A stretch of 64,000 nucleotides of DNA from contig MFNV01000009.1 in the NCBI GenBank assembly GCA_001782165.1, positions 56,123 through 120,122 of the forward strand. The letters are read 5' to 3'. A program made the translations under genes and the position numbers. How positions within the stretch are numbered: the first letter of the stretch is position 1; each line of letters starts with the position of its first letter. This DNA comes from Candidatus Levybacteria bacterium RIFCSPHIGHO2_01_FULL_41_15. Its GTDB lineage: Bacteria; Patescibacteriota; Microgenomatia; Levybacterales; UBA12049. Positions 16,770-62,202 of this stretch are shown piece by piece. The notes beneath the pieces were generated by a model. It saw nothing but the letters and a program-made list of their open reading frames with translations. It did not search any database and had not been told where the DNA came from.

Positions 16770-16835
16770 AACTAAAAATTACTGACCAAAAAAACCTGCC
16801 CGCCATCGGCATTTGCCGAAGGCATTGCAGGCGGG

Positions 16836-16862
16836 TATCACTTGATAAAAGTGATTGCTAAA
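16836..16862 (-). promoter_or_regulatory. Degenerate CIRCE-like operator in the groESL leader
   Basis: Minus strand TTAGCAATC-ACTTTTATC-AAGTGATA, placed immediately downstream of a TTGACA-N17-TATAAAT promoter. Confidence 0.5.
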
Positions 16863-16891
16863 TTTATACAACAAAATGCTTTTTGTGTCAA
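16862..16891 (-). promoter_or_regulatory. groESL sigma-70-type promoter (TTGACA-17-TATAAAT)
   Basis: The reverse complement of plus 16886-16891 is TTGACA, followed by a 17-nt spacer, and the reverse complement of plus 16862-16868 is TATAAAT. Confidence 0.55.
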
Positions 16892-16912
16892 TAACCTATA
16901 GTATAGCACCCT

Positions 16913-17941
16913 TCAGTCGCTCTTCAAAAATTGTAATTCCTTTTTTATTTTTTGGGTCAGTCTATAACTATCTGCGTGATTTAGAAAGCCTAAATAAGCT
17001 GCTATGCTTTGATTAAGCGAGTACTGTAAAATTTTGCCACTCCTGAAATCTTCAATCTTATTTTCTATCTTTTTAAATATTCTATTTCTGGTTTTTGTAC
17101 AAGGCAGAATATGATGTGGTAAAACTATGTATCCTAAGAAATCAATTCCCTGGTTATATTTTCTAATTATTATTTTCTTTGAATGTAAGTCAAGGTTAAG
17201 ATTGTCTCTTAGAAACATTGTAATTATACTAATATACTTGGACAATTTTTTTAAATCTGGATCTAGAATTATAAAATCATCTGCATAACGAATATAATAT
17301 TTAACCTTTAATTTTTGTTTCACAAATTGATCTAGCTCATTAAGATATATATTTGCAAAAAGCTGACTTGTGAGATTTCCTATGGGAATTCCTCTTTCCT
17401 TTGAAAAACTCTTTAGAATATTTTCTAAAAGCCAAGTGAGATTCCCATCTTTTATTTTTCTTTTTATAATCGAAAGAAGAATTGCGTGATCAACGCTTTC
17501 AAAAAACTTTTTAATGTCAAGTTTTAAGACAAAGCAATCTTGTTTGTAATTCTTACTTACTTTCCTTATTAATTTGGAGAGTCTTTTAACAGCTCTGTGA
17601 GTTCCTTTATTAAGTCTGCAGGAATAAGAATCGTAGATAAAAATCTGATCAAAAATAGGTTCAAGGATAGATACTATAGCATGGTGAACTATTCTATCGC
17701 GCACTTGCGCTTTATGGATATGGCGGAATTTAGGATCGTAAATGTTAAAAGCCGTATATTTACCATGTCTGTAATTCCCGCTTTTTAATTTTTTATGAAG
17801 TCCAAAAAGATTATCCTCAAGATTTATTTCAAAAAATCGTACATCTTTCTTTCTTCTTTTGTCTTTCTTAAATTCATCCCATGCTTGAAATAAATTTTCT
17901 ATTGATATAATCTTTAGATAGAGGGTATGAAAAACTTTCAC
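16913..17941 (-). CDS. DGR reverse transcriptase
   Basis: RT motifs 'RDRIVHHAI', 'FVLKLDIKKFFESVDH', 'GIPIGNLTSQLFANIYLNELD' (IGxxxSQ, DGR-specific rather than QGxxxSP) and 'YIRYADDFIIL' (YADD). 342 aa. Confidence 0.85.
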   Translation of the reverse strand: MKVFHTLYLKIISIENLFQAWDEFKKDKRRKKDVRFFEINLEDNLFGLHKKLKSGNYRHGKYTAFNIYDPKFRHIHKAQVRDRIVHHAIVSILEPIFDQIFIYDSYSCRLNKGTHRAVKRLSKLIRKVSKNYKQDCFVLKLDIKKFFESVDHAILLSIIKRKIKDGNLTWLLENILKSFSKERGIPIGNLTSQLFANIYLNELDQFVKQKLKVKYYIRYADDFIILDPDLKKLSKYISIITMFLRDNLNLDLHSKKIIIRKYNQGIDFLGYIVLPHHILPCTKTRNRIFKKIENKIEDFRSGKILQYSLNQSIAAYLGFLNHADSYRLTQKIKKELQFLKSD

Positions 17942-17953
17942 GGCACAAAATTA

Positions 17954-17988
17954 GGACAGGACAGGACAGGACAGGACAGGACAGGACA
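17954..17988. repeat. (GGACA)x7 pentanucleotide microsatellite in the divergent RT/avd promoter region
   Basis: Seven perfect tandem copies, 13-47 nt upstream of the RT start codon. Confidence 0.9.
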
Positions 17989-18041
17989 GTAGTGAGTTTA
18001 ACATACCAATTTTCCAGAAACTTTACGATTTCTACAAATTA

Positions 18042-18332
18042 TTGTACCAATATTTAAAACTGTTTCCTCAGAAAGACCGTTATACTCTCGGGCAGAAAAT
18101 AGATAATCTTTCATTAACAATTTTTGAGATGGTAATTACGGCAGGGGCAATATCAAAAGAAAAAAAGCTTCCATATCTTGAAAAATCCATAGCTACATTA
18201 AATCTCCTGAAAATACTTATAAGACTTGCGAAGGATGTTAGGGCTTTGGACAATAAAAAATATTTAGAACTTCAAGAAAACCTCCAAGAAATTGGAAAAA
18301 TGCTTGGAGGATGGAAAAAATCTCTCCTATAA
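18042..18332 (+). CDS. avd: Accessory variability determinant (Avd-like four-helix-bundle protein)
   Basis: 96 aa with a TTG start. Segments 'LFPQKDRYTLGQKIDNLSLTIFEMVITAG' and '…LQEIGKMLGGWKKSL' parallel Bordetella phage bAvd ('…IAQSIPRKHGVAREMFL…VGRILGSWI'). Divergent to the RT. Confidence 0.65.
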   Translation: MYQYLKLFPQKDRYTLGQKIDNLSLTIFEMVITAGAISKEKKLPYLEKSIATLNLLKILIRLAKDVRALDNKKYLELQENLQEIGKMLGGWKKSLL

Positions 18333-18348
18333 ATAAGGAGATGCAAGG

Positions 18349-18475
18349 CACTTCCTCAGAGCGACCGCCCCAATTCGGATTGTGATTCTGCGGATTCAGA
18401 TCCCGATTGACATTCAGGTTGCCATTCGGATTGCAGTTGGCATTGACCACCTTACCGTCATTGCGCGACCCCAGC
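18349..18475 (-). repeat. DGR template repeat (TR); adenine-bearing strand is the minus strand
   Basis: 127 nt, identical to the VR except at 15 positions, all of which are T on the plus strand (A on the minus strand) in this copy. Its minus-strand translation is Asn-rich (NANCNPNGNLNVN…, AAY codons). Confidence 0.85.
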
Positions 18476-18792
18476 TTTGTTTTGTCCTATGCCATCTTTC
18501 TTTATCACCATGGTTTTTCTTTTAAATGGAATCACCATTGAATTTTATCTGGAAGAAGTCCCGATTTAATCGGAGACACCTTCACCAGCACAGAACAAGA
18601 AGTGTCTTGCTTTTCTTGCGTACTCTTTCAAAAACCTTAATTTTTGAAATTCTGACACAGAGTTGAAAAACAACAATTTCGGCGATCCCAATCCTTGAAT
18701 CGGGATTCATTAACCTACTCTCTTTGCTATAATAGCAGAAAAATAAAAAGTTTAAAAAATTTAAGAAGAATAAAGTATTAAAGGATTAAGTT

Positions 18793-19608
18793 TTATAACA
18801 CTTCCTCAGAGCGACCGCCCCAATCCGGATGGCGATTCTGCGGATACAGACCCCGAAAGACATACAGGTAGCCATACGGATAGCAGTAGGCATAGACCAC
18901 CCTACCGTCAATGCGCGACCCCAGCAGACGTGACCATGTAGAACCTTGGTCAAGATAGTTACCATCTAGAACTTCCATTTGTCTTGAGAAAATAGCATAA
19001 GTTATGAGTCTCTGTCCTCTTGTCCCCTGCAACTCAAAATGTTTCCTAAGTTGGTCTTCGTTTGTGTCAAGGTTTGGGGAATCAATGACACCTTCAACTC
19101 TAATATACCCCGTTCTATCAAACTCATCTTCTATTGGGGTGCCTTCTCGGACACTGTAGTTTTCCAATTCGGGGAACATCTTACCAAGCGTTATGAGACC
19201 TTCTTTTCCCTTAAGTTCTTCTGGTATACCGATTGTAAACGGGGAGAGTTCTATTCCCTTGATGTCGGCAAAAGGTTTTTTTAATCGTTCTTCAGTTGCG
19301 CTGCATGGTGCAATATCAAAAGTGAGACCTTCTTCTCCTCTTGGAACTTGCCAAAAAGCCTTTTGGAAGTTGGTAACTTTCTCAGGACTAAAGGGATTTC
19401 TGTTGAGTTCTTGAGCCGCTCGTCTCAGAAGATCTAGGGGGTCAGGTGGGTAAGACTCTACTTTTTCTTTTTCTCCTTTGCCTTCAGGTAGCGGAACATC
19501 AGAAATACCATGCTTATCTAAAAGCTCCTGTCTTAAGCCAGAAATTGCCCTAGCAATTCCTTTTATCCCCATTCTACTTAGTTCTCTTTCTGCATGTCTT
19601 AGTGACAT
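18793..19608 (-). CDS. DGR target protein (271 aa) with C-terminal variable region (putative C-type-lectin/FGE-like ligand-binding fold)
   Basis: The C-terminal 42 codons are the VR and encode a Tyr-rich segment '…VVYAYCYPYGYLYVFRGLYPQNRHPDWGGRSEEVL'. No signal peptide. The N-terminal domain is unassigned. Confidence 0.75.
   Translation of the reverse strand: MSLRHAERELSRMGIKGIARAISGLRQELLDKHGISDVPLPEGKGEKEKVESYPPDPLDLLRRAAQELNRNPFSPEKVTNFQKAFWQVPRGEEGLTFDIAPCSATEERLKKPFADIKGIELSPFTIGIPEELKGKEGLITLGKMFPELENYSVREGTPIEDEFDRTGYIRVEGVIDSPNLDTNEDQLRKHFELQGTRGQRLITYAIFSRQMEVLDGNYLDQGSTWSRLLGSRIDGRVVYAYCYPYGYLYVFRGLYPQNRHPDWGGRSEEVL
18799..18925 (-). repeat. DGR variable repeat (VR) with a GC-rich IMH-like 3' end
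   Basis: Direct repeat of the TR. The 3' 23 nt (coding-strand GGGGCGGTCGCTCTGAGGAAGTG) are identical between TR and VR, and all mismatches fall at TR adenines. Confidence 0.85.
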
Positions 19609-19732
19609 AGGGTTGGTTTATATCATACTATAAGTTGACTTGTCAATAACCTATAGTAGAAACGTGTCGGCTTCAATCTAATCGGGGTTGACATAACTTT
19701 CTTTCTTTTGTACGATAAATTCAGGTCAAAAT

Positions 19733-20872
19733 ATGTCATTATCGCCAAGACGTCTTATCCTCGTAGGTTTGGCAGTTATTCTCCTTATTGCAATCCCTCT
19801 TACTATTTATCTTGTTCAGAAACAGCAGGAATTAAGAGGAAGAGCCGCTCCTTCAACTACGCTCTCTGTTATGCCGGCAACTAAAACTGCGGCAGTCGGA
19901 CAAACAGTAAGCTTTGATATTGTAGTAAATCCGGGAACAAATCTTGTATCTGTATTGACTTTGGTTATAAATTACGATTCCACCAAACTTGAAACAGGCG
20001 CTTCTGCTTTTGTCAAAAATACAGAGCGGCCCCTAGATCTTATAGGAGATCCTGTCTATACTCCCGGAACGATAACGGCAAATCTTTCAACAGGGATAGA
20101 CACCACCAATGCTATAACTTCCCAAACTACCCTGGCTACAATAACCTTCAAAGCCCTTGCGACAACTGGATCAATTCCGACAGAGATCACCTTTGATCAA
20201 ACCAAGAGTCTTGTTTATCCTTTGGGAGCAGAAGAAAACCTTAATGTACTTAAAACCGTTAATCCTGCACGTTTAACTATAACCGGAGACTCAGCCATTA
20301 CTCCTACTCCAACTCCAACTCCCACGTCAACTCCCACTCCCACTCCAAGCCCAATACCAATCCCTACAATAAGTTCACCCACGCCGACATCTGCTCCGGG
20401 AGGAGGAGGACCGGTCAACCAAAACCCTGTTTGCTCAAGTCTTGTCCTTGACAGATCGTCCTCGGGAACTGCCCCCTATTCCCTGACATTCACGGCTTCT
20501 GGGACCGACTCTGATGGCACGATTACAAAAGTAAACTTTAGTTTTGGAGATGGGACAGTGCAAGATATAACGCAAGGGGGGGGAATAGGAACAAATACTG
20601 TAAATGCCCAAGTCTCTCATATTTATAATACAGCCGGGACATTTACAACGTCGGCAACCCTGACAGACAACAGCGGCGCAACCAGTAACTCTGTAACATG
20701 CAGTCAGACAATTACAGTAATCGCAGGAGGCACAGGAGGAACATCTCCTCCTGTTTTAGCAACACCTACTCCTACAATTGAGCCTTCGGGACCTTCGGAA
20801 ACCATAGTCGGAATAGGACTAATTGGAATACTTCTTACGATAATAGGAGGGGTAATTCTTCTTGCTCTTTAA
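19733..20872 (+). CDS. Cell-surface protein: N-terminal signal/anchor, beta-sandwich domain, PT-rich linker, PKD-like domain, C-terminal TM anchor
   Basis: 'TPTPTPTPTSTPTPTPSP' linker, a PKD-like 'VNFSFGDGT…HIYNTAGTFT' segment, and C-terminal 'PSGPSETIVGIGLIGILLTIIGGVILLAL'. Confidence 0.65.
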   Translation: MSLSPRRLILVGLAVILLIAIPLTIYLVQKQQELRGRAAPSTTLSVMPATKTAAVGQTVSFDIVVNPGTNLVSVLTLVINYDSTKLETGASAFVKNTERPLDLIGDPVYTPGTITANLSTGIDTTNAITSQTTLATITFKALATTGSIPTEITFDQTKSLVYPLGAEENLNVLKTVNPARLTITGDSAITPTPTPTPTSTPTPTPSPIPIPTISSPTPTSAPGGGGPVNQNPVCSSLVLDRSSSGTAPYSLTFTASGTDSDGTITKVNFSFGDGTVQDITQGGGIGTNTVNAQVSHIYNTAGTFTTSATLTDNSGATSNSVTCSQTITVIAGGTGGTSPPVLATPTPTIEPSGPSETIVGIGLIGILLTIIGGVILLAL

Positions 20873-33435: not shown

Positions 33436-34138
33436 TCTTTATAATTTCTACGAATTCTCGTGGATCAAGACTCGCCTGTCCTACTAACGCACCCTCTATG
33501 TTTGGCTGGGAGAAAAAAGAGGCAACATTGTCTGAATTTACACTTCCACCATATAGAATTTTTATTTCCCCAATCCGTTCTTTTATTTTACCAGCATACA
33601 AATTTGAATCTTCCGGAGAATCAGGTTTGTATTCTCCTCCGCCGCTAATCGCATCGGGGGGCTCATAAACAAACAATATTTCCTCAGATCTTCCTATAAT
33701 TTGTCTTCCTCTATTAACATAAGAGTCCAATTGTGACAAATCGCTAATACAAAGAATGGGCATGATTTTGTATTCCAAAAGAAGCTTTATTTTTTCAATA
33801 ACATCATCATCGTTCTCATTAAAATATTTCCTTCTTTCAGAATGACCAACAATACAATACTTAACTAATCCGCTTATCATTTGTGCTGTTACTTCTCCTG
33901 TATAAGCTCCTTCTCTAAATTTAGAAACATTCTGAGCGCCAAGCTTGAATGGCAATTTATGATTTACAATATATGATTTAAGATTTGGAAGAAGAGTAAA
34001 CGAGGGACAAAGTATGATTTCTTTATATTCTATATGTGATATTTGATATTTGATATTTGATATTTCCTCAAGCCATTCCTCTGCCTCATTGATTGTTTTG
34101 TTGGATTTCCAGTTAGCTATAATAAAAAGTTTTTTCAT
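33428..34138 (-). CDS. tpiA: Triosephosphate isomerase
   Basis: 'IIANWKSN', 'IVGHSERR' and 'YEPP…AIGGG'. Contains an in-frame (TGATATT)x4 repeat. Confidence 0.9.
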   Translation of the reverse strand: MKKLFIIANWKSNKTINEAEEWLEEISNIKYQISHIEYKEIILCPSFTLLPNLKSYIVNHKLPFKLGAQNVSKFREGAYTGEVTAQMISGLVKYCIVGHSERRKYFNENDDDVIEKIKLLLEYKIMPILCISDLSQLDSYVNRGRQIIGRSEEILFVYEPPDAISGGGEYKPDSPEDSNLYAGKIKERIGEIKILYGGSVNSDNVASFFSQPNIEGALVGQASLDPREFVEIIKNA

Positions 34139-36090: not shown

Positions 36091-37106
36091 AGCCTCAGGA
36101 TTTTAACAAAAACGTGAATCACCCGCTCCAAAGCTACGAATGGGGGAAATTCAGAGAAAAAACAGGCATTAAAGTTATAAGAGGCGGTGATTTTCAACTT
36201 ACAATTCATAAAATTCCCTATCTTCCGTGGACTATTGGTTATCTGCCAAAAGGAAAGTTGCCCGATAAAAAACTTGTCGAAGAACTTAAAAAAATCGGTA
36301 AAGAAAATCACTGCATCTTGATCCAACTCGAGCCAAATGTTGAGAAAATTTCAAATTTAAAATTTCAAATTTCAAATTTAGGCATGGTGCCTGCAGCGCA
36401 TCCTCTCTTTACAAAATATACTTTCATTCTAGATCTCACAAAGAGTGAAGATGAATTGTTAAAAGTAATGCATCCTAAGACCCGTTACAACATAAAAGTA
36501 GCACTTAAACACGGAGTCGAAGTTATTGAGTATGATTCAGATGAAGCTTTTAAAGCTTATTTAAAATTAACCGAGGAAACTACCAGAAGACAAAAATTCT
36601 ACGCCCACACTCAAGATTACCATAAAAAAATGTGGGAGATTTTGAAATCTGAAAATGGAAAATCAATGATAAATGATAAATGGAAAATGGAAAATTTTAA
36701 TCGCTTAACTGCCTATTTGCTACTTGCGAAATATCGAAAAACGAAGAACAAAAAACCAATAACTTTAGTCGCTTGGATCTTGTTTACCTTCAAAGACACT
36801 CTCTACTATCCTTACGGCGCGTCATCAACTGAACATCGAGAAACAATGGCAAGTAATCTTATGATGTGGGAAACAATAAGATTTGGTAAAAAACTGGGTC
36901 TTGCGAAATTTGACATGTGGGGAGCGTTAGGGTCCGACCCTGATCCAAAAGACCCTTGGTACGGCTTCAATAAATTTAAACAAGGCTATGGCGGAAAACC
37001 CGTAGAATTTGTGGGAAGTTATGATTTAGTTATCAATCCTGTCTTATATAATCTTTATAAAGTAGCCAACAAAATCAGATGGGCTATTCTAAAATTTAAA
37101 AAATAG
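36087..37106 (+). CDS. FemAB-family peptidoglycan interpeptide-bridge aminoacyltransferase-like protein
   Basis: 339 aa with FemABX-like conserved blocks ('YEWGKF…', 'WETIRFGKKLG…FDMWG'). Confidence 0.6.
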   Translation: MKPQDFNKNVNHPLQSYEWGKFREKTGIKVIRGGDFQLTIHKIPYLPWTIGYLPKGKLPDKKLVEELKKIGKENHCILIQLEPNVEKISNLKFQISNLGMVPAAHPLFTKYTFILDLTKSEDELLKVMHPKTRYNIKVALKHGVEVIEYDSDEAFKAYLKLTEETTRRQKFYAHTQDYHKKMWEILKSENGKSMINDKWKMENFNRLTAYLLLAKYRKTKNKKPITLVAWILFTFKDTLYYPYGASSTEHRETMASNLMMWETIRFGKKLGLAKFDMWGALGSDPDPKDPWYGFNKFKQGYGGKPVEFVGSYDLVINPVLYNLYKVANKIRWAILKFKK

Positions 37107-61049: not shown

Positions 61050-61147
61050 AATTTTAAATTTTTAATTCTTAATTTTTATTGAATTTTTAATGTTTTAAGT
61101 TTTAAAATTTAGATTTTATTTAAAATTTCAAATTTCAAATTCTAAAT

Positions 61148-61723
61148 TTACTTGCCAAGGTATTTCAATGCAAGCCTTATCTTCTCTTCAACACTCTCTA
61201 TCTTCTTGTCAATATTTTTGAGGGCTTCCCCTGCTTCTTTTGAAGAAAACCCAAAACTTTTAAGAACAGCTAAAACTTCTTTTGCTTCCCCGTCTCCCTC
61301 TTGTAATAAATCGAGCTCCTCAAGGCTTCCTACTTTACTCTTAAGTTCGATTATTAATTTTTGTGCATTCTTGGTCCCAAGACGAGGAATTGCTGTAAAG
61401 AAAGAGACATCTGCTTTGGCAATTGCAGATATTATTGAGTCTCTATTCCCAAAGGAGAAAATGTTTACTGCGATACGAGGTCCGATTCCTGAAACTCCTA
61501 TTATTTGTTCAAACAGTTTTAAATCTAAAGGATCGGAAAATCCGAAGAGCTCTAAAGCATCTTCCCGAACATGAGTATAGGTATAGACTTCGATTTCTTG
61601 ATTAATTTTTGCTTTTCCCAAAACCTCAGACGGTACAGTCACCTTATATCCTACGCCTTGCGTATCAATCACAATTGAAGCATTGTCAAAATACTTTACT
61701 TTTCCTTTTATAAAACCGATCAT
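61148..61723 (-). CDS. ruvA: Holliday junction DNA helicase RuvA
   Basis: 'MIGFIKGKV…GVGYKV', HhH 'GIGPRIA'. Confidence 0.9.
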   Translation of the reverse strand: MIGFIKGKVKYFDNASIVIDTQGVGYKVTVPSEVLGKAKINQEIEVYTYTHVREDALELFGFSDPLDLKLFEQIIGVSGIGPRIAVNIFSFGNRDSIISAIAKADVSFFTAIPRLGTKNAQKLIIELKSKVGSLEELDLLQEGDGEAKEVLAVLKSFGFSSKEAGEALKNIDKKIESVEEKIRLALKYLGK

Positions 61724-62202
61724 AAGCTTAATCTTTTGTTCGAAAAAAGATATGTTAGTCCGACAGCCAGTGCGTCCGCGGTATCATCGGGTTTTGGGAC
61801 AGAATTTAAGTTTAAAATTGTTTTTACCATTTTCCCCATTTGTGCTTTTTCTGCTCTTCCATAGCCCGTCACTGCGATTTTAACCTGAAGAGGAGTGTAG
61901 ATTGCAAGAGGTATGTTTTTTTCTGCTCCTGCAAGAAGAATTACTCCTCGTGCTTGTCCTACAATAAAAGCAGTCTTTGCATTGGTATTGAAAAAAAGCT
62001 CTTCAATTGCCATCGAATCTGGCGAATATTTTTCAATAAGTTTTAATATTTCGCTATAGATTTTTTTGAGCCGGTACTCTACATCATCCTTTGAACTCGT
62101 CTCAATGCACCCGAAGTTTTGACTTTTGACTTTTGACTTTTGACTTTCGATTACTCCCCATCCTGTTCTTGCAATTCCTGGATCAATACCCAAAACCCGC
62201 AT
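61720..62202 (-). CDS. ruvC: Crossover junction endodeoxyribonuclease RuvC
   Basis: 'MRVLGIDPGIARTGWGVIE'. Contains an in-frame (TTTTGAC)x4 repeat insertion. Confidence 0.9.
   Translation of the reverse strand: MRVLGIDPGIARTGWGVIESQKSKVKSQNFGCIETSSKDDVEYRLKKIYSEILKLIEKYSPDSMAIEELFFNTNAKTAFIVGQARGVILLAGAEKNIPLAIYTPLQVKIAVTGYGRAEKAQMGKMVKTILNLNSVPKPDDTADALAVGLTYLFSNKRLSL

Follow-up and report, generated by a model that had tools for sequence, protein, structure and literature searches.

A pentanucleotide repeat inside avd as a probable phase-variation switch of a diversity-generating retroelement in Levybacteria, next to a structured RNA leader of the template repeat

The stretch of DNA analyzed here, 64,000 nucleotides of contig MFNV01000009.1 from Candidatus Levybacteria bacterium RIFCSPHIGHO2_01_FULL_41_15 (hereafter the window), carries a diversity-generating retroelement (DGR) whose accessory gene, avd, contains seven tandem copies of GGACA close to its start. 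Followed leftward along the minus strand, the locus consists of a target gene with its variable repeat (VR), a 323-nt non-coding spacer, the template repeat (TR), the reversed avd gene, the (GGACA)7 tract and the gene of the reverse transcriptase (RT) (Table 1). Avd was identified by the Pfam family bAvd (E=2e-21) and by the NCBIfam equivalog NF033474, DivGenRetAVD (86.4 bits, with a cut-off of 80). The RT translation contains the [I/L]GxxxSQ motif of DGR-type RTs as IGNLTSQ, and its best NCBIfam match is a group II RT model, under cut-off, as expected for the RTs of DGRs; its assignment to the DGR type was made from the RVT_1 match and the motif. The product of the target gene had no Pfam or NCBIfam match in the family searches. 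TR and VR differ by 15 mismatches, all of them at adenines of the minus-strand TR. With the TR/VR pair, the RT and Avd all present, the locus is a DGR. An annotation made beforehand from the sequence alone (the first-pass annotation) had placed the template strand on the minus strand, antisense to avd, and had described avd (+) and RT (-) as divergent; the positions of the 15 differences agree with the former, and the open reading frames (ORFs) of the window bear out the latter.

Table 1. Features of the DGR locus; positions are those of the window, and n is the number of GGACA units.
Feature	Positions	Strand	Basis and remarks
DGR reverse transcriptase gene	16913..17941	-	342 aa, GTG start 17941, IGNLTSQ motif; ORF list and Pfam RVT_1 (E=5e-25)
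TGATATAAT, extended -10-like element, candidate avd promoter	17903..17911	+	15 nt upstream of avd ATG, within RT codons 11-13; read from sequence
Conserved avd start ATG 17927, as proposed, and first nine codons (MKNFHGTKL)	17927..17953	+	Comparison with relatives; 15-nt head-to-head overlap with RT start
(GGACA)7 microsatellite within avd 5' coding region	17954..17988	+	Tandem Repeats Finder (TRF), pattern search; GQDRT repeats when in frame
TAG ending the ATG-17927 frame after 21 codons at n=7 (OFF)	17990..17992	+	In-silico translation
Avd core (SEFNIPIFQKLYDFYK...GGWKKSLL, stop 18330-18332)	17991..18332	+	bAvd and NF033474 matches, homologue alignment
Hairpin UCUCCU-UAUUUAU-AGGAGA and U-run, 3' of TR	18313..18341	-	Overlaps avd stop; terminator-like match, minimum free energy (MFE) fold
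Helix H6, 3' strand (GAAGUGcCUUGC): last 6 nt of TR and 6 nt beyond	18343..18354	-	Pairs with leader motif AGCAAGACACUUC, 18599-18611
Template repeat (TR)	18349..18475	-	127 nt, 33 adenines on minus strand; TR/VR alignment
Structured RNA leader directly 5' of TR, ~245 nt	18476..18722	-	Alignments, RNAalifold, nhmmer
Helix H3, within the leader	18587..18598 with 18482..18493	-	One strand pairs with 12 nt immediately 5' of TR
Putative TR RNA promoter: TTTAAA, 16 nt, TATTAT with upstream TG (extended -10 TGCTATTAT at 18729-18737)	18729..18756	-	Promoter scan
Target gene	18793..19608	-	271 aa; VR at its 3' end; ORF list
Variable repeat (VR)	18799..18925	-	127 nt; stop of target ORF 6 nt past VR end

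This architecture, which had been called unusual, does differ from that of Bordetella phage BPP-1, but it is a published type and the norm among relatives. TR and RT lie on one strand with avd between them on the opposite strand, which is the definition of architecture B3, TR-(avd)-RT with reversed avd. In Wu et al. 2018 (Nucleic Acids Res 46:11; PMC5758913), B3 makes up 90% of the DGRs that the authors report from the Candidate Phyla Radiation (CPR), with the same order and orientation as the window (target/VR, spacer, TR, reversed avd, RT); the architecture section of that paper mentions no repeat tracts in avd, overlapping starts or RNA leader 5' of TR. We collected 454 Avd homologues, the closest named proteins in the homologue search being from Candidatus Levybacteria, and fetched 80 species-level genome loci and 32 metagenome loci around Avd homologues. 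The metagenome scan returned no locus of the same species, with a best identity of 79%. The genes avd and RT are head-to-head in every related locus with an RT match, and of the 89 loci in which a TR/VR pair could be detected, 87 have a template strand antisense to avd. TR typically lies 4-76 nt past the avd stop in the relatives and VR ~210-480 nt beyond it (occasionally >1 kb or elsewhere).

Comparison with these relatives places the start of avd, in all probability, at ATG 17927. Avd profiles (bAvd, NF033474) match from the IPIF codons at 18003-18012, and the frame of the core contains no stop back to 17955; from there to 18042 it has no ATG, GTG or TTG. Among relatives free of repeats, an ATG in the frame of the core precedes it by 12-48 nt in 58 of 63; in the 48 of these loci scored for position, this ATG almost always abuts the RT start or overlaps it by up to 18 nt. 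By length, the overlaps are 15 nt (19 loci), 9 nt (9 loci), 0 nt (6 loci), 12 nt (3 loci) and 18 nt (2 loci), and start overlaps of 0-18 nt are the rule across ~100 CPR DGRs. In the overlap of the window, ATGAAAAACTTTCAC is the reverse complement of GTGAAAGTTTTTCAT, and both proteins open M-K-x-F-H. Furthermore, the deposited proteins P0001 and P0124 begin MKNFHGTKLGQD. A start at TTG 18042 was rejected, as it would drop the first 11 residues matched by the Avd profiles (helix 1); the 100-bp shared promoter region of the first-pass annotation was an artefact of taking this codon as the start of avd. Since the starts of avd and RT overlap head-to-head, the promoter of each gene must sit within the other gene. 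Strings of the form TGAnnTAAn, resembling the candidate avd promoter TGATATAAT, occur at the equivalent place in relatives; the element itself is absent from the output of the promoter scan, in which no -35 satisfied the scan rule.

Measured from the conserved avd ATG, the tract lies 27 nt downstream; its length is 35 nt in the window and 15-100 nt in relatives. TRF reports one perfect array (17953-17989, period 5, 7.4 copies, 100% matches), which is the top-scoring microsatellite of the window, and the 15-mer GGACAGGACAGGACA is unique to the tract in the window, where shuffles give an expectation of 0.01. Because the unit is 5 nt long, every unit gained or lost shifts the frame of avd. In-silico translation at n=2 to 12 yields a full Avd of 126-141 aa when n is 2, 5, 8 or 11, a peptide of 16-26 aa that stops at the TAG just past the tract when n is 4, 7 or 10, and a junk-frame product of 36-51 aa when n is 3, 6, 9 or 12. 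Only where n = 2 mod 3, then, does the avd core share the frame of ATG 17927, and the window allele, with n=7, is OFF. This is the layout of translational phase variation: a repeat unit that is not a multiple of three, inside an ORF and 3' of the proposed start. We consider it probable, on the sequence comparisons that follow, that Avd undergoes slipped-strand translational phase variation and that this variation gates mutagenic homing.

Related Microgenomates carry tracts at the same place. In 38 unique related loci the interval from the conserved ATG to the Avd core contains a simple repeat, with six types of unit in all: (CA)7-28, GGACA/CAGGA (7-10 copies), ACAGA (6-20), ACAG/CAGA (4-9), AATC (19) and poly-C (7-11 nt). 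Poly-C abuts the ATG directly in several loci, the ATG being retained against the tract (ATGCCCCCCCCC). Tracts occur at 2.83 per kb in the 140 nt that precede the core and at 0.092 per kb in the flanks, a 31-fold enrichment. Frame offsets of 0, 1 and 2 between ATG and core are uniformly distributed among the repeat loci (10, 15 and 13 loci, respectively), and an in-frame ATG is found in 9 of 37 repeat loci versus the 58 of 63 repeat-free loci mentioned above (Fisher p=3e-12). In the 28 OFF loci, the linker from tract to core contains no stop in 177 codons of the core frame, as opposed to 50 in 331 codons of the other frames (p=2e-10), and the segment from ATG to tract contains none in 196 codons of the ATG frame, as opposed to 41 in 353 codons of the others (p=7e-9). 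To judge from these stop counts, both flanks of the tract are kept as coding sequence though mutually out of frame, which is the classical signature of a phase-variable gene. Deposited ON proteins that read through the tract are P0001, P0006, P0011 and P0124.

Copy number also varies within the strain of the window, whose RT protein is encoded in identical form on 15 public contigs. Seven units are found in the window and in several other samples (at least five independent assemblies, identical RT), and ten units in two assemblies (L002 and L005) that have an identical RT and at most one substitution relative to the window besides the tract. Eight units are found in protein P0124 (SRR3989344; 136 aa), which is residue-for-residue equal to the predicted ON product of the window strain; a search for DNA records behind this n=8 protein, and behind the GenBank protein P0002, found none, and the alleles known from DNA are those with n=7 and n=10. 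Judged by these sequences, the strain is polymorphic for n = 7, 8 and 10. A sister strain has n=2 and is ON (P0001; DNA L119), its protein beginning MKNFHGTKLGQDSSEFNIPIFQ. Within-species pairs exist for other units as well: L094, with a CA tract of 29 nt, is OFF and L095, with 27 nt, is ON, their flanks being identical, and L010 and L092 are one CA unit apart.

These differences in copy number could be artefacts of assembly or sequencing, a view for which one could cite the contigs that break in or near the tract (L004 starts inside it) and a single-base interruption in one copy of the tract (L123). We find it scarcely credible. Reads are longer than a tract of 35-50 nt; at least five independent assemblies agree on n=7 and two on n=10; the n=8 protein comes from a separate data source; and dozens of unrelated assemblies show the same kind of variation. 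The interrupted tract itself belongs to the same strain (L123:601-635) and reads GGACA x3, TGACA, GGACA x3; one would expect such a break in the array to make the OFF frame more stable, although an error of assembly may also account for it. Note also that public contigs of the strain break either in the tract (L004 starts at window position 17972) or in the VR-TR spacer near VR (L002 and L005 end at 18755), a pattern that fits population heterogeneity fragmenting assemblies.

The DGR has been active in this strain. Contig L121, from another sample, equals the window over 3291 nt save for 20 sites, and all of these lie in VR (L121:2258-2384, corresponding to window 18799-18925). The VR of L121 has 18 differences from TR, at adenines only, and the window VR is likewise altered at adenines only, which shows recent mutagenic homing in the window strain. 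Several observations nevertheless weigh against a frame switch that gates this activity. The VR was diversified on an n=7 background, the window and L121 both being OFF alleles, and both alleles of this strain with DNA (n=7 and n=10) are OFF. Moreover, the ON fraction among repeat loci, 9 of 38, is slightly, though not significantly, under one third, and GenBank protein P0002 ('MPIFQ...') is annotated from ATA 18003, so that weak non-canonical initiation is possible. A VR that changes on an OFF background implies either transient ON episodes or some synthesis of Avd in the OFF state.

Some of these facts, together with others, would also suit an untranslated tract. If it were leader or promoter DNA, a view not far from that of the first-pass annotation, Avd would initiate at ATA 18003, ATT 18009 or TTG 18042 whatever the value of n, and tract length would tune transcription or the 5' untranslated region (UTR) of RT. 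Annotation from an ATA codon and alteration of VR at n=7 would then be natural, a uniform distribution of frames is expected of non-coding DNA as well, and the tract does sit upstream of the RT start. The flanks, however, are stop-free in their own frames, and this disfavours an untranslated leader: the linker lacks core-frame stops in 28 of 28 OFF loci while stops are common in the other frames, and the segment from ATG to tract behaves alike. In addition, the conserved ATG is kept even where it abuts a tract (ATGCCCCCCCCC), the four ON proteins span the tract, tracts of 15-100 nt are too long for -35/-10 spacing, and initiation at TTG 18042 costs 11 residues of helix 1. We therefore regard an untranslated tract as unlikely. 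Re-initiation or a programmed +1 frameshift at CAG-TAG-TGA was also tried as a general mechanism of Avd synthesis and was rejected by inspection, there being no in-frame start, no slippery site and no conservation of the context.

About two thirds of the repeat-bearing loci are out of frame, and one could suppose that the tracts are neutral mutational hot spots at overlapping starts and that OFF alleles are broken avd genes in decaying DGRs. Two out-of-frame loci with degenerate repeats and no long tract (L016 and L017) would agree with decay. Yet OFF loci retain an intact RT, Avd core, TR, VR and leader RNA (described below), their flanks are stop-free in their own frames, and VR turns over in the window strain. 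Six unit types at one 100-nt position, enriched 31-fold, speak for selection for mutability rather than neutrality. Neutral decay is, in our judgment, quite improbable. In the two loci just named (L016:1087-1139 and L017:3959-4012) avd is out of frame with the conserved ATG and only a degenerate repeat remnant is left (e.g., CAGGACAGG); they may be locked-OFF alleles or may express Avd by another route. A further locus (L083:3913-4006) has (CA)28 upstream, but a separate ATG stands 6 nt ahead of its Avd core; here Avd seems to have slipped free of the switch as the tract grew.

Translational phase variation of Avd, which we continue to prefer, would operate as follows. Slipped-strand mispairing at replication would alter the length of the tract, at high frequency and reversibly. 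Avd would be required by the RT for cDNA synthesis, by analogy with the Bordetella phage BPP-1, in which Avd is needed with the RT (Handa et al., PMC6182149). Copying of TR RNA with adenine mutagenesis, and with it the rewriting of the target VR, would then be restricted to ON cells, so that most cells, including those with the n=7 allele of the window, would be silent and a minority would be diversifying. Related Microgenomates would do likewise with (CA)n, ACAGA, ACAG, AATC and poly-C. The first-pass annotation had already proposed a phase-variation switch, to be abandoned if GGACA copy number proved invariant and the repeat were absent from orthologous loci; instead, n takes the values 7, 8 and 10 across assemblies and proteins of the same strain, and orthologous loci carry repeats. 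The switch itself is thus upheld in substance, but as one of reading frame within the coding region of avd and not of promoter spacing; the promoter scan found no promoter-like pair flanking the tract. The tract also sits 12 nt ahead of GTG 17941 on the strand of RT, in the 5' UTR or promoter region of that gene, and nothing in our data speaks for or against an effect on RT.

The RNA that carries TR is the second subject of interest. As the first-pass annotation had foreseen, it would be transcribed leftward from the 18480-18790 stretch, where we find a conserved extended -10 promoter and a covarying leader. The pattern TGnTAnnnT of this extended -10 is conserved in the spacer alignment of relatives, and the length of the VR-TR spacer is conserved as well (~210-480 nt in nearly all loci), the spacer being alignable across phyla-level groups of Patescibacteria. 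Upstream of the promoter, phased CTTTG/T-tracts with ~10-nt spacing (18740-18790, minus strand) are conserved in relatives and could be curved DNA, an UP-like element or an array of binding sites. For the leader, RNAalifold predicts 33 pairs from 24 sequences, 29 of them with compensatory changes. Pairing holds in 89.1% of cells versus 43-55% for slid partners, and the covariation score is 0.70 versus 0.15-0.22; none of 500 shuffles reached the observed values of pairing and covariation. An nhmmer profile of the leader matches 100 of 122 sequences (121 fetched loci and the window copy), and the match always abuts the 5' side of TR, even in two loci with an inverted TR. Besides H3, the leader contains other covarying hairpins. 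This structure rests on alignment and folding, and two variable hairpins of the leader were seen in single-sequence folds only, RNAalifold not recovering them from the MAFFT alignment. An Rfam 15 scan of 16800-19800 at E<=1 gave no match; that release would cover the motifs RT-1 to RT-19 of Weinberg et al., including the RT-10 motif (PMC5737381), only if all were deposited.

Two predicted helices join the leader to the 3' end of TR and to the segment just upstream of TR. Across 75 loci the duplex H6 is much stronger for cognate strands, at -11.2 kcal/mol, than for non-cognate strands, at -7.3 kcal/mol (p=5e-21), and many examples co-vary. The strand that the leader contributes to H6 runs straight into H3; in the MFE fold of the window the two helices enclose TR. 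Directly 3' of H6 follows the hairpin with its U-run. About one such terminator-like match is expected by chance, and stronger hairpins occupy the same position in many relatives; it is a candidate for the terminator of the TR RNA, an Avd-binding stem-loop, or both. The first-pass annotation had the TR RNA run antisense through avd and possibly on into RT. Given this hairpin and U-run right after TR, the strong hairpins of relatives and the lack of synonymous-site constraint in avd, we think instead that the TR RNA ends near the avd stop and need not cross avd. The entropy of synonymous codons in avd is at background, with a slight dip only at codons 98-102; an RNA antisense to the avd 3' end with the role of the Sp segment of BPP-1 accordingly found no support, no extra constraint on synonymous sites being seen along avd.

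The DGR is flanked by genes for GroES/GroEL and LepA. Next to the target gene (19733-20872, plus strand) lies a gene for a protein with Cohesin and PKD domains and with hydrophobic N- and C-terminal stretches resembling membrane spans, which is likely a surface protein. It contains an (ACTCCA)8 repeat encoding a Thr-Pro linker (20300-20348), whose 6-nt unit stays in frame and makes no frame switch. Elsewhere in the window there is a degenerate AT-rich tandem array with a 7-nt unit at 61050-61149 (AATTTTA x14.7, 71% matches), and other short 7-nt arrays are scattered across it, e.g., at 34032-34065, 36346-36379 and 62117-62147.

DGRs, architecture B3 and repeat-driven phase variation are each already known. 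In the literature searched, which yielded general reviews only and did not extend to Paul et al. 2017 on CPR DGRs, we found neither a repeat switch in avd nor phase variation of any part of a DGR. Unchecked adenine mutagenesis of a functional gene should be costly. If the proposed switch is true, a heritable, reversible and stochastic switch on an accessory subunit would be a simple bet-hedging answer, apparently arrived at independently with at least six repeat units across Microgenomates. There is a practical side to this: in about two thirds of these genomes, automatic gene prediction gives a truncated avd or a wrong start for it. If the leader primes cDNA synthesis, a permuted TR-leader RNA would widen a mechanistic model based on the Bordetella phage and would offer a compact RNA module for engineering DGRs of the CPR type.

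The leader can be compared with the DGR RNA of phage BPP-1, whose order is avd 3' end, TR and Sp (Handa et al., PMC6182149). In BPP-1 the 3' end of TR is paired with Sp 47-56, and a segment upstream of TR with Sp 59-70 (bioRxiv 10.1101/2023.10.23.563531). Likewise, one strand of the window leader forms adjacent duplexes with the TR 3' end (H6) and with the segment upstream of TR (H3), TR being looped out. Unlike Sp, which lies downstream of TR, the Sp-like strand of the window lies ~120 nt upstream of TR in a leader of 245 nt, and what separates TR from the reversed avd is ~16 nt and one hairpin, rather than a spacer of the BPP-1 type. By analogy, priming would presumably occur from the leader. 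The same preprint, from the Ghosh lab, covers 40 nt upstream and 100 nt downstream of TR (bioRxiv 10.1101/2023.10.23.563531), a scope that would therefore miss the leader. Combining both lines of evidence, we give roughly even chances to the joint proposition that DGR activity in Microgenomates is a contingency trait exercised through the avd repeat and that the DGR RNA of the CPR is circularly permuted. For its first part, a hypermutable repeat in avd may toggle a hypermutation machine so that a subpopulation alone diversifies the target. For its second, the RNA would have a Sp-like and presumably priming domain 5' of TR, with a conserved GACACU (18601-18606 in the window) at the junction of the two helices; a domain so placed would explain how a reversed avd fits between TR and RT.

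The proposed switch has its closest parallels in the contingency loci of pathogens. The opa genes of Neisseria carry (CTCTT)n pentamers in the region of the signal peptide, lic1 of Haemophilus carries a (CAAT)n repeat, and Campylobacter has poly-G tracts. As in the avd gene of the window, a non-triplet unit lies just past the start, its copy number sets the frame, and ON and OFF alleles coexist within a strain. Known contingency loci, however, mostly switch surface structures or restriction-modification genes in host-associated pathogens, whereas the gene switched here would encode the accessory subunit of a mutagenic retroelement, in CPR bacteria of groundwater that live free or as episymbionts. 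A different kind of repeat switch is that of hifA/hifB in Haemophilus, where (TA)n between divergent promoters acts as a promoter spacer. The window as annotated resembles it in having a divergent gene pair with a microsatellite between the ORFs, and this was in effect the model of the first-pass annotation. General reviews (PMC11868660 and PMC3546556) treat contingency loci at large, and NadA provides a distal-repeat example of the promoter type (PMC2791445). The repeat of the hifA/hifB type differs in this from the tract of the window, which comes after the conserved avd ATG, forms part of the translated sequence in ON alleles and is too long for a -35/-10 spacer.

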